Positions 2,477-17,947 of a stretch of 17,947 bases of DNA are shown piece after piece. The position numbers and the translations under genes are program-made. This DNA comes from a virus. The notes below the pieces were generated by a model. The model did not search any database. It saw nothing but the letters and a program-made list of their open reading frames with translations, and was not told the DNA's origin. Each line of letters opens with the position of its first letter. The first letter of the stretch is position 1. The stretch spans positions 1 to 17,947 of IMG/VR virus record IMGVR_UViG_3300045988_020090; one strand, written 5' to 3'.

Positions 2477-3421
2477 GTGGCAAAACGTAAAACCAACCGA
2501 CGCGCCAACAATCTGAAACGCAACGCCGCAATCAGGTCGGCACAGGTACGCCGAGAGCAAGCGGTCAGGGATTACAGTACCGGACATCTCCCCAAGCAAA
2601 TCACCGAAACGTTTCTCGGAAAACTCAGCGCCCAACAGCTCGAACAGGTTGCCCGCCGCGTCGGACAGGAATTCGGGGAACAACAGCAAGCCTTGAAGGC
2701 CAGAGATAACGAGCCGTATCAGGTTGTCCCAGATGTGCATATTACGAAACTCGATAGGGAGTTAGCGGCGCGCCCGTTGATTACCGACGCGGAAATCGCC
2801 GCCGCCCCGTCGAAACGTCGGAAGACGTTACGACAGCAACAGCGCCGCCGCATCGAGGTGCGGCAGAAAATCAAACGCGCCCAACAATTCGACGCATTGA
2901 GCATGGCCTGCTACACGGTGGGCGAAATACGTGAAATGGAACGCGCGGGAGAATCCCCGTTTGACGTGTTGGGTACTCATACGGTTGGCGGTTCGGCGCG
3001 CGACGAACTCACACGCAACCGTGCGAACGTGTTCGGCTCGGAGCGCGGCATAAGCCACGCGCGTATGATGATACGAGAGGGAGGCAGGAGGGGACTTGAA
3101 CGTGAGATACTCGAATACGCCGGGCTTATAGGCCGAGCGCCATTACAGGCAGGAGCTAGGCAAATCTCGGGAAGTGAGGGGGTTTCGGATTTTGATAGGG
3201 TCTCGCAACAGCTTGAAGCGTTCGACTCCAACATCGCCCAGAAATTCGCGTCTTTGTCGAACCGTCAAAAACGATGGCTGATAAACAACACGAACTTCAG
3301 CACCGTTGTGCGGGAAGCCTCATGGTATAATGATAAAACACATAAATGGGAGACAAAAGCGGATGCAGGCGATGTAGAGACACGACTTGACGAATGGATG
3401 ACCAGCGCGGCACGACACTAA
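2477..3421 (+). CDS. Candidate terminal (priming) protein, 314 aa
   Basis: ORF 2399-3421. I prefer the GTG at 2477, which follows AAGGGGGAGG (2466-2474), because the longer version would read through the 2417-2450 hairpin. The N-terminus is strongly basic (AKRKTNRRANNLKRNAAIRSAQVRRE) and there is a second basic patch (SKRRKTLRQQQRRRIEVRQKIKR). It lies immediately upstream of the protein-primed polymerase, as phi29 gene 3 does. I see no sequence similarity to phi29 TP. Confidence 0.45.
   Translation: MAKRKTNRRANNLKRNAAIRSAQVRREQAVRDYSTGHLPKQITETFLGKLSAQQLEQVARRVGQEFGEQQQALKARDNEPYQVVPDVHITKLDRELAARPLITDAEIAAAPSKRRKTLRQQQRRRIEVRQKIKRAQQFDALSMACYTVGEIREMERAGESPFDVLGTHTVGGSARDELTRNRANVFGSERGISHARMMIREGGRRGLEREILEYAGLIGRAPLQAGARQISGSEGVSDFDRVSQQLEAFDSNIAQKFASLSNRQKRWLINNTNFSTVVREASWYNDKTHKWETKADAGDVETRLDEWMTSAARH
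3323..3331 (+). promoter_or_regulatory. Perfect extended -10 box TGgTATAAT, about 105 nt upstream of the polymerase start
   Basis: It reads TGGTATAAT at 3323-3331. There is no good -35 (TTGTGC at 3306-3311 is too close). It is one of only two TGnTATAAT matches I found on the + strand, and both precede gene starts. Confidence 0.3.
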
Positions 3422-3436
3422 AAAAAGGATGGAATT

Positions 3437-4897
3437 ATGCGAGAGCGTCGAGCGGCGGCAACAGACGGCGCAACACTCTTGACGGATGACGGCATGGAAC
3501 CATTGACGGCGAACGCCGTCATCCGGCTTACCATGTTCGACTATCATACGCGCGTATGGTGTGCCCATGGGTGGCAGGATATTAAGCCCATAGCCGCCGA
3601 ACTGTTGAAACGACTCCCCTTGCAATCGAATCCAGCCAAGGATGGTGTGTGGGGCACATTTAATATTCGCGGCCACTTCTATAGTTTCCGTGTACGCATG
3701 GGCGGTATCGCCGTGGATTTTGTGGATGTGCGTAATGTCACGCGTGATGATGGCTTGAATGTTTCACGTGAAACATTTGGAGGAACCACCGACTTGGAAA
3801 CCACGTGGAATATCGCGCAGGAATGCGCCGCGCTGAAACTCAGGGGCACGACCATAGCATCAATGGCAATGACCGACTATATCGATGGGGATTACGCCGG
3901 ATTCAAACGTCATTTTCCACCATTGGATAAAGAGGTTTATCATCGGATGCGCCCCGCCTACTATGGGGCGATAGTGTCCAGCAAGCCGGGCGAGTACCGG
4001 GATTGCCGAAGCTGGGATGTAAACAGTCTCTACCCGAGTATCATGCGCGACGCCCCCATGCCGGTAGGCTCGCCAATATGGTACGGCGGGGAATATCAAT
4101 ATGACCCTGATTATCCGCTCCATATCGATGTCATTGCATTTGATGCAAGGTTGAAAACGGGGAAAACGGCGACGCTCACCAATATTCTGCCCGTATGGGG
4201 GTATGAGGGCGAACGTTTGGATAGTACGCTGGGCGTCGTTACCATGCCCGTCACGGATGTGGATTGGGAAACGCTGACCGAAAACTACGATATTCACGTG
4301 TGGGAGCATGTCGGCGGCTGGAAGTTCCGTAAATCGCATGGACTTTATTACACCTACGTTGATAAATGGTTTCACGTGAAACAAACCGCAACCGGAGAGC
4401 GCAGGCAGATGGCGAAACTGTTATTAAACTCACTGGTAGGGAAATTCGGGGCCTCGCTCTACCGGCCCATGTTGCATCCAAAACCGTCTGCGGATGGTGG
4501 CGTGGATTTTACCGTGGACAAACCCGAGTCGGCTAACAGTCTGGCATGGTTGCCGACCGCCGCATATGTCAACGCCTACGGGCGACGAATATTGTCCCGG
4601 GCGATGAACGCGAACGCCGACCGCGTACTCTACGCCGATACCGATGGCATGATATTGGAAGGGTTGGCCGCGCCCTCAGGTATCGAAACGGATGACCGGA
4701 AACTAGGGGCGTGGAAAAACGACCATACCTACGAGAAGCTCCGTATCCTCGGCAATCGCAAATACTGCGGCGTGGAAACAGACGGCGACACCGTCATGCG
4801 TCTGAGCGGCGTGCACCGTGCCGCCCCCATCCCCTATGATGAGTTTCTTCCGGGGGCGCGTCATCTCAATGATGATGGCCACACTTTTATGCTATAA
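3437..4897 (+). CDS. Protein-primed family-B DNA polymerase (phi29 gp2-like), 486 aa
   Basis: - Motif A is WDVNSLYPSIM (D194 at nt 4016).
- Motif B is KLLLNSLVGKFG (K327).
- Motif C is LYADTDGMIL (nt 4631 onward).
- A KxY-like motif is GNRKYCG.
- Long colinear matches to remembered phi29 sequence include FPPLDKEV.. against FPTLSLGLDKEV.., PVGSPIWYGGEYQYDPDYPLHI against PYGEPIVFEGKYVWDEDYPLHI, and KLGAWKNDHTYEKL against KLGYWAHESTFKRA. Confidence 0.93.
   Translation: MRERRAAATDGATLLTDDGMEPLTANAVIRLTMFDYHTRVWCAHGWQDIKPIAAELLKRLPLQSNPAKDGVWGTFNIRGHFYSFRVRMGGIAVDFVDVRNVTRDDGLNVSRETFGGTTDLETTWNIAQECAALKLRGTTIASMAMTDYIDGDYAGFKRHFPPLDKEVYHRMRPAYYGAIVSSKPGEYRDCRSWDVNSLYPSIMRDAPMPVGSPIWYGGEYQYDPDYPLHIDVIAFDARLKTGKTATLTNILPVWGYEGERLDSTLGVVTMPVTDVDWETLTENYDIHVWEHVGGWKFRKSHGLYYTYVDKWFHVKQTATGERRQMAKLLLNSLVGKFGASLYRPMLHPKPSADGGVDFTVDKPESANSLAWLPTAAYVNAYGRRILSRAMNANADRVLYADTDGMILEGLAAPSGIETDDRKLGAWKNDHTYEKLRILGNRKYCGVETDGDTVMRLSGVHRAAPIPYDEFLPGARHLNDDGHTFML
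3758..3777. repeat. 20-bp perfect palindrome AATGTTTCACGTGAAACATT (copy 1 of the GTTTCACGTGAAAC motif)
   Basis: Read directly and self-complementary over all 20 nt. It lies inside the polymerase gene and encodes NVSRETF. Confidence 0.9.
4369..4382. repeat. 14-bp perfect palindrome GTTTCACGTGAAAC (copy 2)
   Basis: Read directly. It lies inside the polymerase gene but in a different codon phase from copy 1 (tgg ttt cac gtg aaa caa = WFHVKQ). Confidence 0.9.
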
Positions 4898-4898
4898 T
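4890..4898 (+). promoter_or_regulatory. Perfect extended -10 box TGcTATAAT overlapping the polymerase stop codon
   Basis: It reads TGCTATAAT at 4890-4898, and the polymerase TAA is at 4895-4897. The -35 is weak. The predicted start near 4905 would transcribe the structured spacer and possibly the late genes. Confidence 0.4.
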
Positions 4899-4904
4899 AT
4901 CCGG

Positions 4905-5064
4905 TAGCGGGGTGTGCGTCCCAAGTCGATTCGATGGCCCGACCGTAAGGCAAGTCGGTAAGGCGATTCGGTCGGATGTAGACGTGCGTAGCCAGCGCCC
5001 AGCGACGGCAAGGGAACCCGCACAGCCTAGCAAACCGGCATGACGGCGTGATTGCCGTCATGCC
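4905..5064 (+). ncRNA. Candidate structured RNA (packaging pRNA analogue, or the 5' leader of the late operon)
   Basis: - This is a 187-nt gap with no ORF.
- An 11-bp perfect stem joins GGCATGACGGC (5037-5047) to GCCGTCATGCC (5054-5064) with loop GTGATT.
- A 7-bp stem joins CCGACCG (4939-4945) to CGGTCGG (4969-4975).
- Tandem 13-mers are TAAGGCAAGTCGG and TAAGGCGATTCGG (4946-4971).
- A tandem pair is CCAGCGC/CCAGCGA (4992-5005).
- GACGGC occurs twice (5004, 5042), and both copies are complementary to GCCGTC (5054). Confidence 0.3.
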
Positions 5065-5084
5065 ACTGACTTTAAGAGGTGATT

Positions 5085-5423
5085 ATGGACGATACCGAGG
5101 ACACCGAGCCGGACACCACGCCAGACGCCGAGCCGGACACGACCGCCGACGACAATACGCCGAACCCGGAGCTTGAAACGCAGGACAATGGCGAACCGGA
5201 GGATGCGGGCGACGACAAGGACGCCGACATGGCCAACCGTCTCAGCGCTTTGGAAGCGACCGTAGCGGAACTCTCCAAAACCATTGAGGCGATGCGCGAC
5301 GCCGCAGCCGACCACGTGCTGAACGATGGCCCGGACGGCGACACGACGCCGGAATCGGCTGAAATGACAGACGATGACTACAACGGCACTTACAGTACGT
5401 TCGATGATTTGTTTGAAGACTAA
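5085..5423 (+). CDS. Putative scaffolding protein (phi29 gp7-like by position), 112 aa
   Basis: AAGAGG (5074-5079) lies 5 nt before the ATG at 5085. The protein is very acidic (DDTEDTEPDTTPDAEPDTTADD...), with a central helical-looking segment (ANRLSALEATVAELSKTIEAMRDAAA). It is small and directly upstream of the capsid gene. Confidence 0.5.
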   Translation: MDDTEDTEPDTTPDAEPDTTADDNTPNPELETQDNGEPEDAGDDKDADMANRLSALEATVAELSKTIEAMRDAAADHVLNDGPDGDTTPESAEMTDDDYNGTYSTFDDLFED

Positions 5424-5445
5424 TGATTAGGAAGGATTGATTATC

Positions 5446-7182
5446 ATGTCAACTACTCCAGTGGTGACGCCGAAACAGCAGTTGCGACCGCTCACTGAAT
5501 TCAACAACGCGCAGATTCTCAATATGATTCGCAACGAGGCGTCGCCCGAATATCAGCGACGTATGCCCTCGGCCACCCAGATGAACATGGATAGGCAGAT
5601 GGCCACCCTCATGTCATCTACTCAGCTCAAGAACGAGTTTTATGCAGCGCTGGTGAACCGCATTGGCGGCACCTATGTGAACACATGGCGCTGGAACAAT
5701 CCGTTGAGTGTTTTCCAGCGTGCATCTCAGATGTATGGCGACACGTGGCAGGAAATCGCCGTAGGTATGCCGCTCGCACAGGTGTACGACCCGGACGCGG
5801 AATACTTGGGCGCGGATAATTTCCGTAAGTGGAAAATCGACGTAGACTCGCTGTATCATCGTCTGGATTTCGCCCACTTCTATCCGGCGACCACGGATGA
5901 CAAGACGCTCCAGCGCGCGTTCACCTCCGAAACCGGTCTGGCTTCGCTCACCTCGCAGATTCTCACCTCCTGTTACAATGCCGCCGAGGTTGACTTGTTT
6001 GAGGCCATGTGCCACCAGTTCGTTGAGTATGCGAAACTCGGCGGATACTGGCGCGTGCACATGAACAATGATTTGAACAACATGGGCAGTTCGGAAACCG
6101 ACGCGCGCGACATGTTGCGCCAGATTCGCGCATGGGCCGACACGCTGAAATTTGTATCCACTCGGTATAATGCGCGGCACATGCCGACATTTGCCCGCCC
6201 GGATGAGCTTGTGTTGTTCTGCTCCCCTGAAGTCAAGTCTGCGCTTGACGTGCAGGGTCTCGCCACGGTGTTCCAGCGTACGGATGCGGAGCCGACCATC
6301 GACCGGATTATCGTCATCCCGCAGGACAGGTTTGGCATGGACGGCGTGCAAGCCATCCTCACTACGGACAAGTTCCTGATTGACATTCCCGTTATCAACG
6401 AGATGACCCAGCAGACGAACCCGGTTAACATCAATTCGGTCAACCATTATCTACACGTCCAGCACATTATCAGCGTGTCCGGATTTGCCCCCGCCGTCAT
6501 GTTCTGGACGGGCGCGGGTTCCACCGCAAGCGTAGTGACGCCTACCGGTACGACGGCCAAGACGCCGACCTTCCAACTCAAGCTTGCCATGTACGGCGGT
6601 GGCGCGACTACGCCGGAGAATGTGGTGCGTGGCGGCGCTGTGCAGGTCACCGCCGATACGACCATCTCCAACGATGGTAAGGCCACGTTCCGCTCGGATG
6701 CTGTCGAGTACGCCATCGGTGATACCGCCAAGCCGAAGAGCGATTACACATACATTTCGCCCACCGGCGTGCTGGTGGTCGGCCTTGATGAGCCGAACAC
6801 CATTATTCCGATTACGGCCACGGCCCTGTATACAAATCCGGCGACACCTGAGGTGCCGGGCACCGTGTCCGCCGCCTTGGACGTGCCGGTGGTTGGCGAG
6901 GGTGTCATCGGATTCAATCCGTCGATTATCGCATCCATTGCCGTGACCGTCCCGGCAGTGACCGTGAATCATACGGCACAGGCGACCGCTACGGCGACCA
7001 TGATTGACGGCCGGACCGCCGACGTGACCGCGCAGGCCGCGTGGACGTCCGACACCCCAGTCAACGCCACGGTGTCCGAGTCGGGTGTCGTTGCGGGCGT
7101 CAGGGCGGGCTCGTCCAATATCACCGCAACCCTGTTCGGCGTGTCCGATAAGAAGAGCGTGACCGTGACGGCGGCCTCGTGA
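5446..7182 (+). CDS. Major capsid protein (phi29 gp8-like) with a C-terminal Big_2 Ig-like domain, 578 aa
   Basis: AGGAAGGA (5429-5436) precedes the ATG at 5446. Matches to remembered phi29 gp8 include FYAALVNRIG...NNPLSVF against FITSLVDRIG...NNPLKKF. Another is DDKTLQRAFTSE...ILTSCYNAAEVDLFE against DDSLKTAFVSW...IINAIYNSAEVDEYE. The C-terminal segment ...AAWTSDTPVNATVSESGVVAGVRAGSSNITATLFGVSDKKSVTV (about 6928-7179) is a typical Big_2 pattern. Confidence 0.9.
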   Translation: MSTTPVVTPKQQLRPLTEFNNAQILNMIRNEASPEYQRRMPSATQMNMDRQMATLMSSTQLKNEFYAALVNRIGGTYVNTWRWNNPLSVFQRASQMYGDTWQEIAVGMPLAQVYDPDAEYLGADNFRKWKIDVDSLYHRLDFAHFYPATTDDKTLQRAFTSETGLASLTSQILTSCYNAAEVDLFEAMCHQFVEYAKLGGYWRVHMNNDLNNMGSSETDARDMLRQIRAWADTLKFVSTRYNARHMPTFARPDELVLFCSPEVKSALDVQGLATVFQRTDAEPTIDRIIVIPQDRFGMDGVQAILTTDKFLIDIPVINEMTQQTNPVNINSVNHYLHVQHIISVSGFAPAVMFWTGAGSTASVVTPTGTTAKTPTFQLKLAMYGGGATTPENVVRGGAVQVTADTTISNDGKATFRSDAVEYAIGDTAKPKSDYTYISPTGVLVVGLDEPNTIIPITATALYTNPATPEVPGTVSAALDVPVVGEGVIGFNPSIIASIAVTVPAVTVNHTAQATATATMIDGRTADVTAQAAWTSDTPVNATVSESGVVAGVRAGSSNITATLFGVSDKKSVTVTAAS

Positions 7183-7188
7183 TATGAT

Positions 7189-7216
7189 GAGAGGGTGGCC
7201 GGTTGGCTACCCTCTC
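7189..7216 (+). other. Hairpin 1 of the post-capsid spacer
   Basis: GAGAGGGTGGCC (7189-7200) pairs with GGCTACCCTCTC (7205-7216). The stem is 12 bp with one G-U and the loop is GGTT. No T run follows. Confidence 0.7.
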
Positions 7217-7238
7217 TCACGGTGTGATGCGATACAAG

Positions 7239-7271
7239 GCCCGGAGCGCAAGCCACGTGAGCGCTCCGGGC
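7239..7271 (+). other. Hairpin 2 of the post-capsid spacer (loop contains CACGTG)
   Basis: GCCCGGAGCGC (7239-7249) pairs with GCGCTCCGGGC (7261-7271). The stem is 11 bp and the loop is AAGCCACGTGA. Confidence 0.7.
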
Positions 7272-7304
7272 ACTGTGACAGTCGCCTAATCTGCGATATA
7301 ATAA

Positions 7305-7340
7305 AAGGGAGTGTTTCACGTGAAACACTCCCTTCTTTAT
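7305..7340 (+). terminator. 30-bp perfect palindrome with a T-rich tail; terminator and/or operator (copy 3 of the GTTTCACGTGAAAC motif)
   Basis: AAGGGAGTGTTTCAC/GTGAAACACTCCCTT (7305-7334) is perfectly self-complementary and is followed by CTTTAT. The core GTTTCACGTGAAAC is at 7313-7326. A TATAAT hexamer sits at 7287-7292, just upstream. Confidence 0.65.
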
Positions 7341-7353
7341 GAAAAGGGATAGT

Positions 7354-9603
7354 ATGCTGAGAGATATCAACCCTAACGTTGAGGCGACGTTTAACTGGGC
7401 TCAATGGACGCCCAACACGTCGCTGAAACTCTGTAACGTGCCGTGGGACAGTAGTTACCGTGACCTGGCCCGGTTCGAATCACCGCAGAAACAACAGGAA
7501 TGGTTTGACCGAAGGCCCGGCATTGACAGGGTGCATGGAGTCATGCACATGTTCGGCCAACCCGTGCGCGTCGAACTGCCATTTAACGAGGCGTCCAACT
7601 ACAACTATGTCGTGGTGTATAACGATTACCCTGACTTGGAGTCGCCACGGTATTGGTATTATTTCATCAACCACGTGGATTACATCAATGCGTACACTAC
7701 TCAGCTCACTGTACAGTTGGACGTTTGGCAGTCGTTCCAGCATGTACTTAGGTTTGGTTCATGCTATGTGGTGCGAGGCCATATCGGCATTGCCAACGAA
7801 AACCAGATGACCGATTATGGTCGCAGTTATCTCGCACTACCCGAAGGGCTGGACACCGGTAGCGAAATGGTAACGGTGAACCAACAGTACAAGTCTCTTA
7901 TCGGCATGGACGGGAAAAATCTGAATTACGGCGTAATAGTCGTGAGCACGGTAGATTTGTCAGCGAACGCGGGCAGTCAGGAAAAACCGTCTCTCACTAC
8001 TGCGGGCGGCTCTCTGTTTGAGAACATGGCTAACGGTGCTGAAATACTGTACTTTAAGGACATCCAGTCCGTCCAAGTGTTTATGGGGGTGGGCTCTACT
8101 TTTTCATGGATAACACAGGGTATTGTAAACATGTACATGATACCCTCTTTGGATGATGACTTTCTTAAGCAATCCGGCTATGTCGTAGATAAGCTGTTTG
8201 GGAGAACACTCCCTTCGGAATTAAATAATCGTATCTACCGTTTCCCCCAGTCGGCCACAAATGCGCCCAGCAGATATGAAGACATTATTACCATTAATGA
8301 TTTTCGTGATAATTTTAATATCCCCAAACGTTATAAAAACCTTAAAAAACTCAAATGCTACCCCTATTCCACTGTTGAATGCACTTGCTTGAATGGCACT
8401 AATATCACCTATAAGCCCGAAAATATCCAAAGTGATAATCTGGTTATCAGAGAGGTGCATAATTACGCGCCCAATGGCGCGCGCTTGAACTTTTACCCGG
8501 TTGGGTACAATAAGGCGGGTGCAAGCGAGATCGCTCCTCTTGATGAAAACAATGGGTTGCCCATTGATAGCGGGGAAATGTTGGACGCCGCGTTTGGCAT
8601 CAGCAATTTCCCTCAATTTGTGATAGTCAACAATGGCGCACAGTTGGCAATGGCAAACAGTGCCTACACTCGTTCCTACAGTCAACAGTCCGCTGACTGG
8701 GCGTACCAAAAAGCGCAGATGGGCATCAGCCAGTCTCTTGCGGCCACGGCCATGCAAAACCAGTACAACACCCAAGCCAACAAACTCGCTATCGGCAACC
8801 GCAACGCCAATAACGCGATACAAGCGACCTCGCTTAACACCAGTCTGGACAGCACGACGTATATCAACAATCAGCGGGCTGACCTCGCACAGCTGAATAA
8901 CGTGTTTAACGGCGTGGTCGGGGTGGCGGGTAACGCCGCTTCGGGCAATGTCGGGGGCGCGGTATCGGCATTGGGCGGTGCGGTCATGAATGGTGTCAAC
9001 ACTGAAGCAAACCGCAGTATCAACAATACCGCCGCCCAACTTTCCACGGCGAACTCGCTGAGTACCAACGCGGCCACAACAAGTCAGGCCAACACATACG
9101 GCTCTCAGACTACAGCGCTTTCAAACCAGTTGGCCCAGAACATGGCGGATATGAACGCGGATTACGCGCAACGTTCCGCGTTCGGAGACTATCAAAACAC
9201 CATTGCGGGTATCAATGCACAGGTACAGCAGATGCAATTAACACCCCCGACCACATCTGGAGCCATCGGCGGAGACGGTTTTAACCTCGCGAACGGTATT
9301 GTCGGGGTGTTGGTTCGATTCAAGACGTGCGCACCCTCAGCTCTGCGGAGCGTCGGAGAGTACATGTTGCGTTACGGGTATTTTATCCAACGTTTCATCA
9401 CGCCGCCGCAATCGCTGGAATGTATGACAAAATTCACCTACTGGCAGATGCAAGAGTGTTACGTGCGAGGTGATTTGCCCGAGCAGTATCGGCAGACCAT
9501 TAAAGGCGTGTTCGAGTCTGGGGTTACTGTATGGACTAACCCGGATGATATCGGCGTGACCGATTGGGCGGATAACGACCCATTGCCGGGCATCTCGTTC
9601 TAG
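7354..9603 (+). CDS. Tail knob / distal tube protein (phi29 gp9-like), 749 aa
   Basis: I prefer the ATG at 7354 (AAAGGGA at 7343-7349) over 7339, which abuts the hairpin. Matches to remembered phi29 gp9:
- CNVPWDSSYRD...WF against ADVPFSNDYKN...WF.
- RYWYYFINHVDY...QLDVWQSF against KWFYAFVTELEF...EIDVLQTW.
- KCYPYSTVE against MMYPYCVTE.
- The C-terminal LRYGYFIQR....GDLPEQYRQTIKGVFESGVTVWTNPDDIG against HKYGYKINR....[28 protein letters not shown]. Confidence 0.88.
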   Translation: MLRDINPNVEATFNWAQWTPNTSLKLCNVPWDSSYRDLARFESPQKQQEWFDRRPGIDRVHGVMHMFGQPVRVELPFNEASNYNYVVVYNDYPDLESPRYWYYFINHVDYINAYTTQLTVQLDVWQSFQHVLRFGSCYVVRGHIGIANENQMTDYGRSYLALPEGLDTGSEMVTVNQQYKSLIGMDGKNLNYGVIVVSTVDLSANAGSQEKPSLTTAGGSLFENMANGAEILYFKDIQSVQVFMGVGSTFSWITQGIVNMYMIPSLDDDFLKQSGYVVDKLFGRTLPSELNNRIYRFPQSATNAPSRYEDIITINDFRDNFNIPKRYKNLKKLKCYPYSTVECTCLNGTNITYKPENIQSDNLVIREVHNYAPNGARLNFYPVGYNKAGASEIAPLDENNGLPIDSGEMLDAAFGISNFPQFVIVNNGAQLAMANSAYTRSYSQQSADWAYQKAQMGISQSLAATAMQNQYNTQANKLAIGNRNANNAIQATSLNTSLDSTTYINNQRADLAQLNNVFNGVVGVAGNAASGNVGGAVSALGGAVMNGVNTEANRSINNTAAQLSTANSLSTNAATTSQANTYGSQTTALSNQLAQNMADMNADYAQRSAFGDYQNTIAGINAQVQQMQLTPPTTSGAIGGDGFNLANGIVGVLVRFKTCAPSALRSVGEYMLRYGYFIQRFITPPQSLECMTKFTYWQMQECYVRGDLPEQYRQTIKGVFESGVTVWTNPDDIGVTDWADNDPLPGISF

Positions 9604-9618
9604 TGCTATACTGGAGGC

Positions 9619-10575
9619 ATGTCTAGGTCGAGGAAAAATCAGAATCGTAGGGGCGGCGCGTTGCACCCGCGTGGCAATTACGCCAAGGCACGCGCCGCCG
9701 ACCTTGACGCAATGTATTATCACCTGCTGACCGAACTGGCACTGAACCGGTTCAGTTGGCGGGGGCTACCGCCTACAGTGGATGAACGATGGTTGGAAAT
9801 GTGTCTGTGTGAATACGGGTGCGCGTTGTTTTTCGAGGACAAACGTATGGGCCGGTTCCTCGCTACGCAAGCTGGCTATCAAGGCCGATTGAACGTGTAT
9901 GATAATCCAACGTGCTTTGAGCCGGTGGGCGTCAACTATCATTACAGGCAACTCAAGGCGGGCCGTGAATGCATTCCGATTTGGGATAACCGGATGCGCA
10001 TGGGTTTCAAGGATATCTTATGGCAGTACGCGAGACGCCTTGCCGACATTGACAAGGCATATGACGTGAACTTGGAGAGCCTGAAACTGCCGACCATCAT
10101 CACCGCCGACCCGCGCACCAAGCTCACCGTGCAGAACATGTTGCAACAGCGGCAGGACGGGCAGGATTATATCATCGGCTATGATTCACTCGACCCCGGT
10201 AGCATGTTCCAACCGTGGCCGAACACGACACCTTACCTGTTGGATAAGTTCGTCCAGCAAAAAACGCAAGTGACTAATGAGGTACTGGGATATTTGGGCA
10301 TCCAATCCAGCGGCACCGAGAAAAAAGAGCGGCTCATTTCCGATGAGGTGGCGCAGTCCAACGAGAAAACGGACGTGTTCCGCCTGAGTTTTCTCAAGGC
10401 CCGGCAGGCGGCGGCGACGGAAATTAACCGGTTGTGGCCGCAACTTAACATCTGGGTGGAGTATGCGGACGCGCAAAGCTCCGGCGTGCCCAACGCGCTG
10501 GATTCCAGCGCGACCGGTACGACGGATATTGACATGCCCGCCTCGTATGATGCGGGTATTGGAGGTGTGTTGTAA
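9619..10575 (+). CDS. Head-tail connector / portal (phi29 gp10-like upper collar), 318 aa
   Basis: The basic N-terminus SRSRKNQNRR resembles phi29 ARKRSNTYRS. FSWRGLPPTVDERWLE matches FEWENLPPTINPSFLE, and GTEKKERLISDEVAQSNEKTD matches [21 protein letters not shown]. GGAGG (9613-9617) lies only 1 nt before the ATG, which is unusual spacing. Confidence 0.92.
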   Translation: MSRSRKNQNRRGGALHPRGNYAKARAADLDAMYYHLLTELALNRFSWRGLPPTVDERWLEMCLCEYGCALFFEDKRMGRFLATQAGYQGRLNVYDNPTCFEPVGVNYHYRQLKAGRECIPIWDNRMRMGFKDILWQYARRLADIDKAYDVNLESLKLPTIITADPRTKLTVQNMLQQRQDGQDYIIGYDSLDPGSMFQPWPNTTPYLLDKFVQQKTQVTNEVLGYLGIQSSGTEKKERLISDEVAQSNEKTDVFRLSFLKARQAAATEINRLWPQLNIWVEYADAQSSGVPNALDSSATGTTDIDMPASYDAGIGGVL

Positions 10576-12230: not shown

Positions 12231-13706
12231 ATGTCCACAACACAGCACACCGGACACTACAATCTGCCGACGTTTGGAGATAATCCGAACGACCGTCCGT
12301 CATGGCGTGGCGATTTCACCGACGCAATGACGAAAATCGATAATCAGATGTACGCCAACGCGACCAACATCACCACGGCGACGGCGGCGGCGAACAACGC
12401 GACCACGGCGGCGAGCAAGGCAGCCGAGACGGCGGGCGGCGCACAGTCCACAGCCGATGACGCCGTGGCCCGATTGGACGCGCTCGGCGCAACCGGCAAT
12501 ACGGCGGCAGGTCAGCTTAAAACCAAGATCGACACCACGTCCACCGGGCTGAATGCGGTGAAATCCGACCTCAGCGTCTTCAAGACCTCCACCAATGGGA
12601 ATATTGCCTCATTGCAGAGCAAGAATACGGAAATCGAGAATAATTTAACCAGTATCACTTCATCGGTTCACGCCAACACAACCGGCATAACGGGCATTGA
12701 AGCGAATTTGAACGCGCTTCACGCCGATTCCACCACTAACGCGGCAACGCTATATAACACCATTCAGAACAGTTCTCGTGTTCTTGGCGTTAATCAGCCG
12801 TTCGTGTCTCGCGGCTCAAATATCATCGTGACTTTTGGTGATTCCTACGCCGACACCACGAACACTAGAAGCTGGGCATACATGCTCGCTCAAAAGCTGG
12901 GGTGGACGTTGCATAATTACGCAAAAAGCGGTGCCGGATACATCAGTCCGAACACCACTTACATGAGCGAGTTCAGCACAGCCAAGGCGGATACGTCCTA
13001 TGATCATGATGATGTATCGTTGGTGGTCATTGGAGGCTCTCGTAACGGCAACGACGGGTATTCGGGGACAGTCAAAACAGCCGCGCTGGAACTGTTTCAA
13101 GGAGTAAGCGGTGAATATCCCAATGCGCGAATCATCGCGGTACCGTTGCTATGGGATAAAACCCCGGTGTCAGGGTATTGGCGTTATAACGCCGCAAGCA
13201 TTGACGAGGCGGCGATACTGGCCGGAGTGGAATCCATACCGTGGGCATGGACGTGGAATCTTGGACGCGAAAACGCATTCGATAGTGAGAATATCCACCC
13301 CAACGAGCTGGGTACCAACGTCATCGTAAACTATATCATGCGATACATGCTCGGCGCGTACAATGGCCGACATGAGGTGTTCGTGTGGCGACCCGAGTCA
13401 AACCCTGCGGAATTTGTTCTTACCGTGGACGCAAGCGCGGGAACTATCTCATATGGTCTGTCGGTGGCGGGAGACGTCACGCCAGCGAAGTACACGGACG
13501 TGAGCGGACTGCCAATGTGGGCGTGGAACGCGTCGGATGAGACAAATCAGGGGCGGGCGTGGGTGGCGTCCATCACCAACGGCGCTACAAACACAACACT
13601 GTTCAAAATTGGCACTGACGGCCATTTTGGATGGCAGGGTTACACGACCAACCCCACGGCAACCCCTAACGGATTGGCTGGAGCGCAATTTACCAGAGCG
13701 TGGTAA
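12231..13706 (+). CDS. Tail fibre / appendage protein with an SGNH (GDSL) hydrolase domain, 491 aa
   Basis: - The N-terminal fibre-anchor-like motif is HYNLPTFGDNPNDRPSWRGDFTDAMTKID.
- A long A/T/N-rich coiled region follows.
- SGNH block I is IIVTFGDSYAD (Ser codon at 12843).
- Block III is VVIGGSRNGND.
- Block V is DSENIHPNELG (His codon at 13296). Confidence 0.75.
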   Translation: MSTTQHTGHYNLPTFGDNPNDRPSWRGDFTDAMTKIDNQMYANATNITTATAAANNATTAASKAAETAGGAQSTADDAVARLDALGATGNTAAGQLKTKIDTTSTGLNAVKSDLSVFKTSTNGNIASLQSKNTEIENNLTSITSSVHANTTGITGIEANLNALHADSTTNAATLYNTIQNSSRVLGVNQPFVSRGSNIIVTFGDSYADTTNTRSWAYMLAQKLGWTLHNYAKSGAGYISPNTTYMSEFSTAKADTSYDHDDVSLVVIGGSRNGNDGYSGTVKTAALELFQGVSGEYPNARIIAVPLLWDKTPVSGYWRYNAASIDEAAILAGVESIPWAWTWNLGRENAFDSENIHPNELGTNVIVNYIMRYMLGAYNGRHEVFVWRPESNPAEFVLTVDASAGTISYGLSVAGDVTPAKYTDVSGLPMWAWNASDETNQGRAWVASITNGATNTTLFKIGTDGHFGWQGYTTNPTATPNGLAGAQFTRAW

Positions 13707-13723
13707 CACGATTGGTGTTAACG

Positions 13724-13751
13724 ATACCCCACGGCCATTGCCGTGGGGTAT
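13724..13751 (+). terminator. Hairpin after the fibre gene
   Basis: ATACCCCACGG (13724-13734) pairs with CCGTGGGGTAT (13741-13751). The stem is 11 bp, the loop is 6 nt, and ACTGTTATTAT follows. Confidence 0.5.
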
Positions 13752-13760
13752 ACTGTTATT

Positions 13761-14975
13761 ATGGTAGACATACAAGCATGGTTGGAACGTACCCAAAACC
13801 AATACTGGGATATGGACGGTAGCTATGGCGCACAGTGCTGGGACTTATGGGCGAAATACTGTATGGATAATTACAATCTGTCGTTAGGTGATTGCATCAC
13901 GCCGACAGGTTACGCGGAGGGTAATTATACCATGTTCCCCACCACGTCCGCCGTGGGTCGTGTTTTTGAGAAAAAAGACGCAAACTATACGCCCGGCATG
14001 GGGGATGTCGTGTTTTGGAGGTTCGGCAGTCAAAACTACCCCGGCAGTCACGTAGCCATCGTATGGGGTGGCATTCAAGGCGACAGCATCGACGTGTTGA
14101 CGCAAAATCCAACGCCCGCCGTACATCAAACCCTACCGCTCGCGAAGGGGTCACAGCTTCTCGGTTATCTGCATCCCACGGCATTGCCGGAGCCGCCGGA
14201 ATCCGGCGATAACCCGACGGGCGGTGATAATCCGGGCGTGAAGGTGGACGGCGACATCTCCGCATGGATACAACTACAGGGTGATGATCTCGTATATCAC
14301 AGTGGCTCGGGCACGACATCATCGCAAGCCATTTTTTATAAGGCAACCGCCCAGACGTGGGTATATCGCGGCGGCACAGGTCAGCCAGACGCCGACCAAG
14401 GGCAGGGCACGCCAAGCGTAGGCGACGGGAAAAGCTCATACGCGCTCTATGTGATCGGTACCGTTGAATCATCATTGCGCTGGGATGCTGTTGAATCAAA
14501 CAATCAGGGTATCGGCATCGCACAATGGAGTTTTGGACGACGTTTGCAGGTCTTGAATGCGATGAGGGCGGTGGATGCTGTAGGGTATGAGGCGTTTGCC
14601 GCTGCCGCGCCGGGTATCGCCGCGCTCATGGAATCAGGCGGCACGTTCGATAGGGCGATGACCGGTGGCGAGGTTGCGGCGTTCCAGACGTGGGCGCGGC
14701 GTACGGAATCACGGCAGGGCCAGCGTAATCAGTTCGCAAAGGATTACGAGGGCTATCCGCTGATGTATGATGATGTGAAAATGCAGATACTGTGGGTGAG
14801 CGCTTATCATCAAAGCCCGGCGGGCGCGTTGAATGTGCCGCACTCCTCATCGCTTACGCAATTGTATAATAATATCCTTAATACGCCTCCGTTCGGGCCA
14901 TATGGGACACGCTATAATGCCGTCTATTCGCTGTTGAATGTGTGGGACGGCGCTAGTGCGCCGCCGAACTTTTAA
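13761..14975 (+). CDS. Tail-associated peptidoglycan hydrolase with an N-terminal CHAP domain and a C-terminal lysozyme/transglycosylase-like domain (functional analogue of phi29 gp13), 404 aa
   Basis: I prefer the ATG at 13761, because the GTG at 13743 lies inside the hairpin. CHAP is indicated by YGAQCWDL (Cys codon at 13836) and GSHVAIV (His codon at 14049). A Pro/Gly linker (PEPPESGDNPTGGDNPG) follows. Next, VESSLRWDAVESNNQGIGIAQWS (Glu codon at 14466) resembles the ES...A.S..GA.G..Q signature of SLT/GH23-type enzymes. Confidence 0.78.
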   Translation: MVDIQAWLERTQNQYWDMDGSYGAQCWDLWAKYCMDNYNLSLGDCITPTGYAEGNYTMFPTTSAVGRVFEKKDANYTPGMGDVVFWRFGSQNYPGSHVAIVWGGIQGDSIDVLTQNPTPAVHQTLPLAKGSQLLGYLHPTALPEPPESGDNPTGGDNPGVKVDGDISAWIQLQGDDLVYHSGSGTTSSQAIFYKATAQTWVYRGGTGQPDADQGQGTPSVGDGKSSYALYVIGTVESSLRWDAVESNNQGIGIAQWSFGRRLQVLNAMRAVDAVGYEAFAAAAPGIAALMESGGTFDRAMTGGEVAAFQTWARRTESRQGQRNQFAKDYEGYPLMYDDVKMQILWVSAYHQSPAGALNVPHSSSLTQLYNNILNTPPFGPYGTRYNAVYSLLNVWDGASAPPNF

Positions 14976-14977
14976 CA

Positions 14978-15015
14978 CAGTGACAAACCGGTAGATATAT
15001 ACCGGTTTGTCACTG
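14978..15015 (+). terminator. 16-bp perfect hairpin between the tail lysin and the ATPase gene
   Basis: CAGTGACAAACCGGTA (14978-14993) pairs with TACCGGTTTGTCACTG (15000-15015). The loop is GATATA and TTGTAT follows. Confidence 0.6.
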
Positions 15016-15027
15016 TTGTATGGTAGT

Positions 15028-16134
15028 ATGGATACTATGGAGAAACTGTTAGCCGAGGGCGATTATTACGACTACGGGCGTATATTATCCTATCACGCGC
15101 CTTGGATGTTCGTCATCGGCGCACGCGGCCTCGGCAAAACCTACGGTGCCAAAAAACTGGTCATAGGCGACTGGATTAAAAAACGATGGCAATTCATCTA
15201 TCTGCGCAGGACGGCGGAAGAACAAAAAAACAAGGGGACATGGTTCGCGGACATCGCGGAACAATACCCGGAGTTGGAATTTCGCGTGTCCGGCAATCAG
15301 GCAGAGTGTCACTGGCTGGATGACAGGGACGCCACCGTAGACAAGCATAATAAGAAGCGCCCAACATGGCATATCATGGGGTACTTCATTGCCCTCAGTC
15401 AGGCAGGACAAGTGAAATCGGTGGCCTACCCCAAGGTGCGGACGATAATCTTTGACGAGATTTTCCCCGATAACATGAGGTATTTGGGCGGTGAGGTAAC
15501 CGCACTTGAGGAATTTTACAATACGGTTGACCGTTGGAATGATAGAGTGCGAGTCATCATGTGCAGTAACGCGGTAACGTTGGCCAACCCGTATTTTTCG
15601 GCATTCAACATCAACCTGAAACCACAGTTTGACAATCACATGCAATACCAACGCTATTGCAACGGATTCATCATGGTAGAATTAGCCGACTACGGCGGAT
15701 TCAGCGCCAAGGTAGCCACATCGAAATTCGGACAGTTTTTACGCGAATATGATGAAAATTATGCGAATTATGCAATCAACAATGATTTCAGGGATAACGC
15801 CAATACCCTCATCAGTGACTTCAACAACGCCGGTTACGCGTTCACGCTAAGAACCACTGAATACGGTATTTTTAACATATACCAACAATTAAGCGATACC
15901 GACGAAGTACTATATATAATCACCAAAAAACAGCCTAAAATCACTAGGGACTTTACGTTTGATTACCGACTGGTCGACAATGATTGCATCATGCTCAAAC
16001 GCTCCGACGATATGACGCAGAAAATATTAAACGCCTATCGCGTCGGGCGGCTACGGTTTGAAACCCCGCAAATCAAAGCAGAGTTCAGTATGATACTTGG
16101 CGGCTTATTGCAACAATCAGGCATAAGAAAGTGA
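15028..16134 (+). CDS. DNA encapsidation ATPase (phi29 gp16-like), about 368 aa
   Basis: - Walker A is FVIGARGLGKTYG, against phi29 FVIGARGIGKSYA.
- QFIYLRR matches QFIYVRR.
- Walker B is AYPKVRTIIFDEIF, against AYPNVSTIVFDEF.
- RVRVIMCSNAVTLANPYFSAFNI matches RVRCICLSNAVSVVNPYFLFFNL.
- The start is uncertain: the TTG at 15007 lies inside the hairpin, so ATG 15028 or 15037 is more likely. Confidence 0.93.
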   Translation: MDTMEKLLAEGDYYDYGRILSYHAPWMFVIGARGLGKTYGAKKLVIGDWIKKRWQFIYLRRTAEEQKNKGTWFADIAEQYPELEFRVSGNQAECHWLDDRDATVDKHNKKRPTWHIMGYFIALSQAGQVKSVAYPKVRTIIFDEIFPDNMRYLGGEVTALEEFYNTVDRWNDRVRVIMCSNAVTLANPYFSAFNINLKPQFDNHMQYQRYCNGFIMVELADYGGFSAKVATSKFGQFLREYDENYANYAINNDFRDNANTLISDFNNAGYAFTLRTTEYGIFNIYQQLSDTDEVLYIITKKQPKITRDFTFDYRLVDNDCIMLKRSDDMTQKILNAYRVGRLRFETPQIKAEFSMILGGLLQQSGIRK

Positions 16135-17335: not shown

Positions 17336-17371
17336 AAAAAGCCTCTAGGCATATAGCCTAGGGGCTTTTTT
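17336..17371. terminator. Rho-independent terminator, potentially bidirectional
   Basis: AAAAA is followed by GCCTCTAGGC (17341-17350), which pairs with GCCTAGGGGC (17356-17365) with one G-U, and then by TTTTTT (17366-17371). The A tract on one side and T tract on the other let it serve both strands. Confidence 0.8.
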
Positions 17372-17401
17372 CTATATCTTAGCTCAAAACTCCTGCTCAG
17401 A

Positions 17402-17921
17402 TATCACCTTCACTCTTTTTCAATAGGAGTACTCAGGACGCTCAGAAACAAACCCCATCAAGCGATAAACAAAGCCCACCATATTATCCATAGCCGAACA
17501 AACCTCACCAGAACAAGAATCATACGTTTCAGTGAAGAATTTTACAATCACAAACCCCCTTAGACGATAGCGCAAGATAAGAACCTCCTTTCCGCCCAGC
17601 TCACCAGTCTCAAAACGAACAGAAATACCAGTCATCTCAACTACCATCCTTTCCGTACTCCTTGGCTGACAATTACATAATACACCACCACAAAACACAA
17701 CACACCCAACAACACAAAAAACGATAAAAAAACAACGAGATAAAAAACGCAGACAAAACAACAAGCAGAAACGACAACGAAAAAAAGCCAGCAAACACAA
17801 GAAGCACCAGAGACGGGACAAAAAAAGCACAACAAGAACGACAACAAAAAACACAGAACAGAGAGCAATAGCAAAACACACAACAGAACAGTTGTGGAAA
17901 AAGGATAGCTGCTGGGGGCCC
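17402..17921. repeat. Right inverted terminal repeat (ITR), 520 bp
   Basis: Exact reverse complement of 27-546 (position p pairs with 17948-p). Confidence 0.92.
17420..17647 (-). CDS. Hypothetical ITR-encoded protein, 75 aa (right copy, identical to 301-528)
   Basis: This is the mirror image of 301-528 within the right ITR. It is the only plausible minus-strand gene in the window and it reads inward toward the 17336-17371 terminator. Confidence 0.5.
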   Translation of the reverse strand: MVVEMTGISVRFETGELGGKEVLILRYRLRGFVIVKFFTETYDSCSGEVCSAMDNMVGFVYRLMGFVSERPEYSY

Positions 17922-17947
17922 AGATCGGAAGAGCGTCGTGTAGGGAA
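17922..17947. other. Sequencing-adapter remnant (reverse complement of the same adapter)
   Basis: Bases 17922-17947 read AGATCGGAAGAGCGTCGTGTAGGGAA, the reverse complement of 1-26. Confidence 0.95.

Follow-up and report, generated by a model that had tools for sequence, protein, structure and literature searches.

Phages with a phi29-type packaging motor raise the question of whether an RNA component accompanies the connector and gp16-type ATPase when no such RNA can be recognised by sequence. The window considered here, the full 17,947 nt of IMG/VR virus record IMGVR_UViG_3300045988_020090, is a complete phi29-like phage genome of 17,947 bp with its major genes all on the + strand. A reading made earlier from the sequence alone had singled out one region, 4890-5084, between the DNA polymerase and the late (head) genes, as a candidate for the prohead or packaging RNA (pRNA), and had held that both protein partners are encoded. 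They are: Pfam Phage_connector is matched at E = 1.4e-42 and Podovirus_Gp16 at E = 3e-42. The sequence features that it described within the region were also all found where it had placed them. Coordinates below refer to the window, and its features are on the + strand unless noted.

The region is probably the gene for a divergent pRNA. The fold, the synteny, the protein partners and covariation in sister lineages support this as the best explanation, in agreement with the sequence-only reading; a purely cis-regulatory role is the main rival.

Conservation and fold of the region in the window's clade

The window's clade comprises 78 related IMG/VR genomes, which yield 77 distinct sequences (alignment A1). 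Nucleotide diversity is about 0.05 at 4910-5030; in the polymerase, scaffold-position, and capsid genes it is 0.28-0.33 at codon position 3. No other stretch of the surrounding 1.3 kb is as conserved as the 125 nt that separate promoter and hairpin. This conservation, and not stability, is the main argument for a real element. The window RNA has a G+C content of 64%, and the region 4898-5084 has a predicted folding energy of -80.5 kcal/mol (z = -3.6). The earlier description of the region as free of open reading frames (ORFs) does not hold literally, with mechanical ORFs of 43-66 aa overlapping 4890-5084, but does hold in the sense that none of them is conserved. A minus-strand ATG is kept in 38 of the 77 sequences, 1-nt indels shift the frame, and the diversity carries no codon-position signature; coding potential was rejected for both strands on these grounds, and the region is non-coding.

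A consensus fold was obtained with RNAalifold from the 77 sequences, and pairs were then counted on the explicit structure, with slid partners as the control. Standard pairs occupy 99.2% of cells, vs 29-44% in the slid controls. The structured core is 125 nt long (4907-5031). Double changes occur at eight pairs, five of them in the 3' hairpin; those in the core include pair 35/109 (GC53/AU12) and pair 95/101 (UA48/CG15/UG14), the numbers here being alignment columns of A1, in which, for example, 28/114 reads UG48/CG29. G-U pairs are frequent in the consensus structure, which identifies the + strand as the one that folds. Most core pairs are uninformative because the core is nearly invariant, and the structure is supported, but not proven, from the window's clade alone.

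The consensus fold contains the three-way junction with two complementary loops that had been predicted for a pRNA at this position. The junction is closed by a helix A equivalent of about 25 interrupted base pairs, in which 4907-4937 pairs with 4999-5031 and the 3' strand carries a 3-nt ACC bulge; its changes are compatible or compensatory, and its helices 1 and 2 are 99-100% paired. The first arm (4939-4975), equivalent to the C and E elements of pRNA, consists of a C helix, a 5' bulge, and an E hairpin. The C helix is the 7-bp stem noted previously (4939-4945 with 4969-4975), paired in 99.6% of cells and with changes that are only G-U-compatible. The bulge, UAAGGCAAG (4946-4954), includes a GGC (4949-4951) that is invariant apart from one exception in 77 sequences, while adjacent bulge positions vary. 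The E apical hairpin (4955-4966) has a 6-nt loop, GUAAGG. A 10-nt linker at the junction, AUGUAGACGU (4976-4985), is unpaired in the consensus and almost invariant. It leads to the second arm, the D hairpin equivalent (GCGU-AGCCA-GCGC, 4986-4998), whose closing pair covaries (UA48, CG15, UG14) and whose pair 91/102 has one double change. The tandem TAAGGC-N4-CGG units (4946-4971) and the tandem CCAGCG(C/A) pair (4992-5005) of the sequence-only reading are both present.

The loop of the second arm (4990-4994) has a GCC (4991-4993) that is invariant in 77/77 sequences, again with variable flanking positions, and this GCC is complementary to the GGC of the bulge. A complementarity of 4 nt had been looked for; the window has 3 nt. 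The invariance of GGC and GCC amid otherwise variable loops is suggestive of an interaction between them, though it is not a covariation test. The core is followed by a single-stranded linker of 5 nt, AAACC (5032-5036), whose length and sequence vary among relatives.

Ahead of the core lies a putative extended -10 promoter, TGCTATAAT (4890-4898), which overlaps the polymerase stop codon (TAA, 4895-4897). It is kept in functional form in 78/78 clade relatives, as TGnTATAAT in 75 and as TGCTATGAT in 3. Judged from the motif, an RNA would begin at about 4905-4907. Variability in the region peaks in the 7 nt (4899-4905) that separate the -10 from the first paired base, as expected of an untranscribed spacer. 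An outermost CCGG/CCGG pairing seen in the single-sequence fold (4901-4904 with 5034-5037) was rejected, its 5' side being variable and probably untranscribed. The motif TGNTATAAT occurs four times in the window, where 0.51 copies would be expected. The three further perfect copies are at 3323-3331 on the + strand, within the gene preceding the polymerase and about 105 nt ahead of the polymerase start, and at 10166-10174 and 13924-13932 on the minus strand, within late genes; the minus-strand copies could be antisense promoters.

The 3' hairpin (5037-5064, loop UGAU) had been described as a perfect 11-bp stem. Its 11 Watson-Crick pairs are all there, with one G-U pair more, for a total of 12 bp. 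Five of the 12 pairs covary, including UA38/CG38, GC44/AU25, and GC38/AU31. The hairpin is not followed by a T-run in any clade relative, the window sequence at that point being ACUGACUUUAAGAGG, and a terminator scan did not list an intrinsic terminator at 5037-5064. The sequence-only reading had also pointed to two copies of GACGGC (5004 and 5042) competing for the same GCCGTC (5054). All three motifs are present, but the competition does not survive the comparison with relatives: the copy at 5004 is invariant, while the hairpin arms covary away to GGCAGC/GCTGCC. The attenuator-like fold of 5004 with 5054 was rejected because such arms spoil the alternative pairing.

Equivalent RNAs in sister lineages

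The closest phages in GenBank are the Bifidobacterium podophages BD811P1-3, BP1, BadAztec, and BadAargau, with polymerases about 33-37% identical to that of the window; going by these isolates, the host is presumably Bifidobacterium (Actinobacteria). In spite of this divergence, the BD811P2/BP1 and BadAztec lineages have the same -10 motif across the polymerase stop codon. Both have retained the rare Leu codon CTA, with TAA or TAG after it, at the end of the polymerase gene although the protein has diverged, which points to selection on the DNA motif.

The BD811P2/BP1 group is represented by 74 distinct sequences from the same genomic position (alignment A2), and here the arrangement is more explicit. 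The first promoter is found in 73/74 (TGCTATAAT in 61, TGCTATGAT in 6, and TGTTATAAT in 6). The polymerase gene is followed by an RNA of about 140 nt and then by a hairpin with a T-run terminator (73/74), and a second extended -10 lies ahead of the late genes in 70/74. With promoter, RNA, terminator, and second promoter in that order, the RNA of this group is an independent transcription unit. It has a window-like layout, with 94.3% of cells paired vs 36-46% in slid controls, and double changes at 30 of 52 pairs. The bulge, which reads GCCAC or ACCAC, and the second hairpin's loop, GUGGC or GUGGU, are paired in 98.1% of cells, and one position of this pairing reads GC59/GU8/AU7.

Curtobacterium phages offer a smaller set of six distinct sequences (alignment A3). 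The gap upstream of their scaffold and capsid genes (L293, 3009-3202, also in L300-L304) is unannotated and ends in a strong terminator. The RNA there is paired in 92.5% of cells, with double changes at 9 of 32 pairs. Its closing helix covaries, its C/E-like arm carries the bulge AUUGCA, and a second hairpin provides the other loop; the G-C/C-G core of the loop-loop pairing is invariant, and one flanking pair reads UA3/CG2. The covariation with relatives that had been proposed as a check is thus found in the BD811P2 group and the Curtobacterium phages, both for helices and for the bulge-loop pairing.

Support in the BadAztec group (two distinct sequences) is for the promoter, helix A, and the 3' hairpin only; as in the window's clade, there is no separate late-operon promoter after the RNA. 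Terminator-ended gaps of 140-175 nt also lie directly upstream of the scaffold and capsid genes in Microbacterium phage Evcara (L292, 3340-3513), Glutamicibacter phage Voltaire (L291, 3142-3303), and Actinomyces phage Av-1 (L290, 2799-2939). These were folded as single sequences only, and in Av-1 what is left of the gap past the annotated promoter looks too short. No comparable gap is present in Eggerthella phage LE1-1.

What ties the lineages together is where the RNA lies, its promoter, its layout, and a pair of short shared motifs, one in helix A (UCGAUU..CGA) and one at the hairpin apex (GCGUGAUUGC). With a covariance model of the BD811P2 group (R1), the BadAargau2 locus comes up at the expected position, but at E = 3.8. 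A pattern search of IMG/VR for intermediates between the two Bifidobacterium clades (TGCTATAAT, a gap, then CGTGATTG) gave, among the matches listed, only members of clades A and B or chance matches.

The apex motif is at 5046-5055 in the window and in columns 167-176 of alignment A2, identical in the two groups although the stems on either side differ and covary. This suggests a role beyond termination that is sequence-specific, for example as a binding or processing site.

Weighing a packaging role against other explanations

If the region is a pRNA gene, the extended -10 at 4890-4898 would start an RNA near 4905-4907, of which 4907-5031 would fold like pRNA domain I. The interrupted 25-bp helix A would close the three-way junction, one arm presenting GGC in its 5' bulge together with a small apical hairpin, the other presenting GCC in the loop of a short hairpin. 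After the 5-nt linker, the 12-bp hairpin (5037-5064) would sit where pRNA domain II does. Transcript ends, multimerisation, prohead binding, and a role in packaging are inferred. With phi29 as the guide, each molecule's bulge would pair with the next one's hairpin loop, so that a ring would be built on the empty prohead's connector; helix A would point outward from it and dock the gp16 ATPase that packages the DNA. The RNA's presumed docking partner is the connector (portal) protein encoded at 9619-10575, and that of helix A is the gp16-type ATPase encoded at 15007-16134, whose match spans positions 6-319 of the 331 in the Podovirus_Gp16 model. The N-terminus of the connector is basic (MSRSRKNQNRRGG, read from the translation), and this tail resembles that of phi29 gp10, which contains RKR. 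In the window's clade the RNA would have to be released at the hairpin, either because some transcripts terminate there or because they are processed.

The layout was also compared with shuffled sequence. It was defined as a single closed domain with a helix A of at least 15 bp and exactly two branches, the first with a 5' bulge and the second a simple hairpin, with bulge and loop complementary over at least 3 nt, at least 2 of them G/C. This layout is present in the window core, in BD811P2, and in the annotated phi29 pRNA (folded by minimum energy), where helix A has 25, 26, and 24 bp, respectively. Dinucleotide-preserving shuffles of the window core have it in 1/3000 cases, a measure of rarity and not a formal P-value, the definition having been written after the folds were seen.

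This last qualification is one of several points that weigh against a packaging role. The folding energy of the core alone is only modestly low (z = -2.0). The GGC/GCC match is 3 bp long and invariant in the window's clade, hence there is no covariation to count, and a 3-nt complement between loops of this kind is not rare by chance. The Rfam pRNA model RF00044 has no match at E up to 10, either in the whole window or in 4895-5075 alone, as anticipated by the earlier statement that no pRNA is recognisable by sequence. The R1 model does not recover the window core, finding the hairpin apex only (E = 0.82), so that homology between the lineages rests on position and layout, not on sequence. The Shine-Dalgarno sequence of the scaffold-position gene (AAGAGG, 5074-5079) begins 10 nt past the hairpin, as had been noted before, and its ATG comes 20 nt past the hairpin, with no promoter in between. 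In the window's clade, with no U-tract and the late Shine-Dalgarno directly behind the hairpin, a discrete small RNA is not assured. Lacking both U-tract and a following promoter, the RNA is there also the 5' leader of late-operon transcripts, and any transcript not stopped or cut at the hairpin is a late mRNA carrying it.

The main rival builds on this arrangement: the RNA would be a cis-acting 5' leader of the late operon with no part in the packaging motor, controlling either transcription elongation (by attenuation, or by processive antitermination like that of HK022 put) or the translation or stability of the head-gene mRNA, possibly through a phage protein. In the window's clade no promoter-like element other than that at 4890-4898 lies upstream of the scaffold-position and capsid genes, and a hairpin without a U-tract ends the RNA 10 nt ahead of a Shine-Dalgarno. 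The late operon has strong internal hairpins, such as the one at 7185-7219 just past the capsid gene, which a modified polymerase would read through, and high conservation would suit an RNA that binds a protein or the polymerase. We nevertheless regard this explanation as unlikely. A canonical terminator closes the equivalent RNA of BD811P2/BP1, whose late genes have an extended -10 of their own; the only alternative pairing proposed (5004 with 5054) is not maintained as the hairpin arms change; and a closed helix A, a three-way junction, and a covarying bulge-loop match are predicted by a packaging role but not by a leader role. The two roles are not mutually exclusive, and could coexist.

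Less probable still is some other trans-acting small RNA, such as a regulator of host or phage mRNA or an anti-defence RNA, whose likeness in shape to pRNA would be a coincidence. Its own conserved promoter, strong conservation, lack of coding potential, and lack of a match to known RNA families would all suit such an RNA. They do not account for a position fixed beside the head genes across several lineages without otherwise alignable sequence, nor for a layout that agrees with phi29 pRNA in detail, and covarying complementarity between loops points to self-interaction instead of pairing with a target. That the region is just ordinary intergenic control DNA, where the early operon ends and a late promoter and a hairpin act as DNA or as simple signals without any functional RNA fold, seems very improbable. 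A promoter motif and a strong hairpin are indeed what it contains, but the 125 nt between them would not then be the most conserved within 1.3 kb, with pairing kept by compensatory and G-U-compatible changes on one strand only.

The pRNA reading was also compared with another possible location. The only other gap of more than 100 nt, 7183-7338, is very strongly structured (z = -7.8), but was rejected as a pRNA site: it contains three separate perfect hairpins and a promoter-like site, with no closed three-way junction. The hairpins are at 7185-7219 (right after the capsid stop codon), 7239-7271, and 7305-7334, and the promoter-like sequence, GTGACA-16-TATAAT, is at 7275-7302. The only Shine-Dalgarno-like sequence of the tail knob gene (7339-9603), AAGGGAG at about 7305-7311, is in the 5' arm of the last hairpin and some 28 nt from the ATG at 7339; it could be one part of a split ribosome-binding site that the hairpin joins.

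The remaining context is that of a phi29-like genome. The polymerase gene (3437-4897) belongs to the organellar/viral type-B family (PF03175, DNA_pol_B_2), which is the family that holds the protein-primed polymerases. The small scaffold-position gene (5085-5423) is the first of the late genes, and is followed by a phi29-type major capsid protein (Phi29_MCP, 5437-7182) with an Ig-like (Big_2) domain at its C-terminus (residues 500-577), a domain that the phi29 capsid protein also has. At least 80 close relatives in IMG/VR have a capsid protein 91-96% identical to it. The inverted terminal repeats are 562 bp long (1-562 and 17386-17947, 99% identity), a length unusual for a phi29-like phage (phi29 itself has 6 bp). 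Each includes a 153-aa ORF (67-528 and 17420-17881), so that such a gene would exist twice. Other structured stretches are a 77-nt imperfect palindrome at the 3' end of the connector gene (10465-10541), with chance matches to Rfam microRNA precursors on both strands; a 12-bp hairpin (13724-13751) between the gene at 12231-13706 and a CHAP-domain gene; and a 15-bp hairpin resembling a bidirectional terminator (17336-17370) directly before the right terminal repeat.

Comparison with phi29 pRNA and other known systems

The pRNA has been described as unique to phi29 and related Bacillus phages (2024 review, PMC11476376), and covariance-model searches report it only from the Bacillus phage group (PMC12670572, PMC6266182). 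One has been proposed for Streptococcus phage Cp-1, but the covariance models could not reliably find it (PMC12670572, PMC6266182). The RNAs in the gap between polymerase and head genes of Bifidobacterium and Curtobacterium phages have the same layout with an unrecognisable sequence, and we are inclined to see in them the first class of pRNA outside the Firmicute-infecting phi29-like phages. Searches by sequence offered no link to known RNAs. No Rfam family was found in the window or the region beyond chance microRNA and terminator-like matches, the Rfam pRNA model has no match in BD811P2 4720-4905, and BLAST of the region against GenBank phages gave chance matches only.

If this is correct, the RNA component would be ancestral to gp16-type packaging motors instead of a peculiarity of Bacillus phages, and in the window's clade, where it is fused to the front of the late operon, it would be released from the late mRNA or act within it. 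The locus bears on whether other phi29-like phages with gp16 and a connector need an RNA. It provides a candidate in gut Bifidobacterium phages with defined nucleotides, GGC at 4949-4951 and GCC at 4991-4993, and a rule by which further candidates may be sought, in the non-coding gap that separates the polymerase gene from those for scaffold and capsid. Confirmation would give RNA nanotechnology a wider natural range of pRNA three-way junction sequences, and would bear on whether the RNA is an ancient motor part.

Of the systems with which the window RNA can be compared, the HK022 put RNA and classical attenuators are cis-acting phage leader RNAs. The window RNA is like them in being structured, directly after a promoter, and at the head of a long operon with internal hairpins. 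Unlike them, it lacks a conserved alternative pairing, it has a sister lineage in which RNA and operon are parted by a terminator and a second promoter, and it folds into a closed three-way junction with self-complementary loops, not into two independent stem-loops.

In the fold of the annotated phi29 pRNA, helix A has 24 bp; the C helix is followed by a 9-nt 5' bulge that includes AACC and by an E hairpin whose loop is 6 nt long. A linker of UUU leads to the D hairpin, with GGUU in its loop, and after a linker of 13 nt comes the domain II hairpin with its U-run. The window RNA has the elements of domain I in the same order and at similar sizes, over about 120 nt, and in both the loop of the second hairpin is 5 nt long and complementary to the bulge, with a G/C core. 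The bulge-loop complementarity is 3 bp (GGC/GCC) vs 4 bp (AACC/GGUU), and the junction linker is 10 nt vs UUU. In phi29 domain II and the terminator (nt 131-174) also form a hairpin 3' of domain I after a single-stranded linker. The window hairpin is shorter, a simple 12 bp after a linker of 5 vs 13 nt, and the U-tract after it is absent in the window's clade but present in the BD811P2/BP1 clade. Its apex is conserved between the two Bifidobacterium phage lineages, as domain II is reported to be among relatives of phi29 (PMC5066667).

The hosts differ (presumably Bifidobacterium vs Bacillus), as does the placement, in that the window RNA gene is directly upstream of the late genes and collinear with them, while phi29 pRNA is encoded at the left genome end on the opposite strand. 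The order of genes is shared. On the phi29 minus strand it is SSB, p4, TP, polymerase, small ORFs, A1 promoter, and pRNA, and this is matched in the window by an SSB-position gene, a TP-position gene, polymerase, promoter, and RNA. In known pRNAs the two loops pair over 3-4 nt, with GG/CC at the core (PMC12670572), and two intermolecular G-C pairs have been seen in pRNA by nuclear magnetic resonance (PMC5066667). The GGC/GCC of the window and the CC/GG core of the BD811P2 group, as read from their sequences and predicted folds, fit this pattern.

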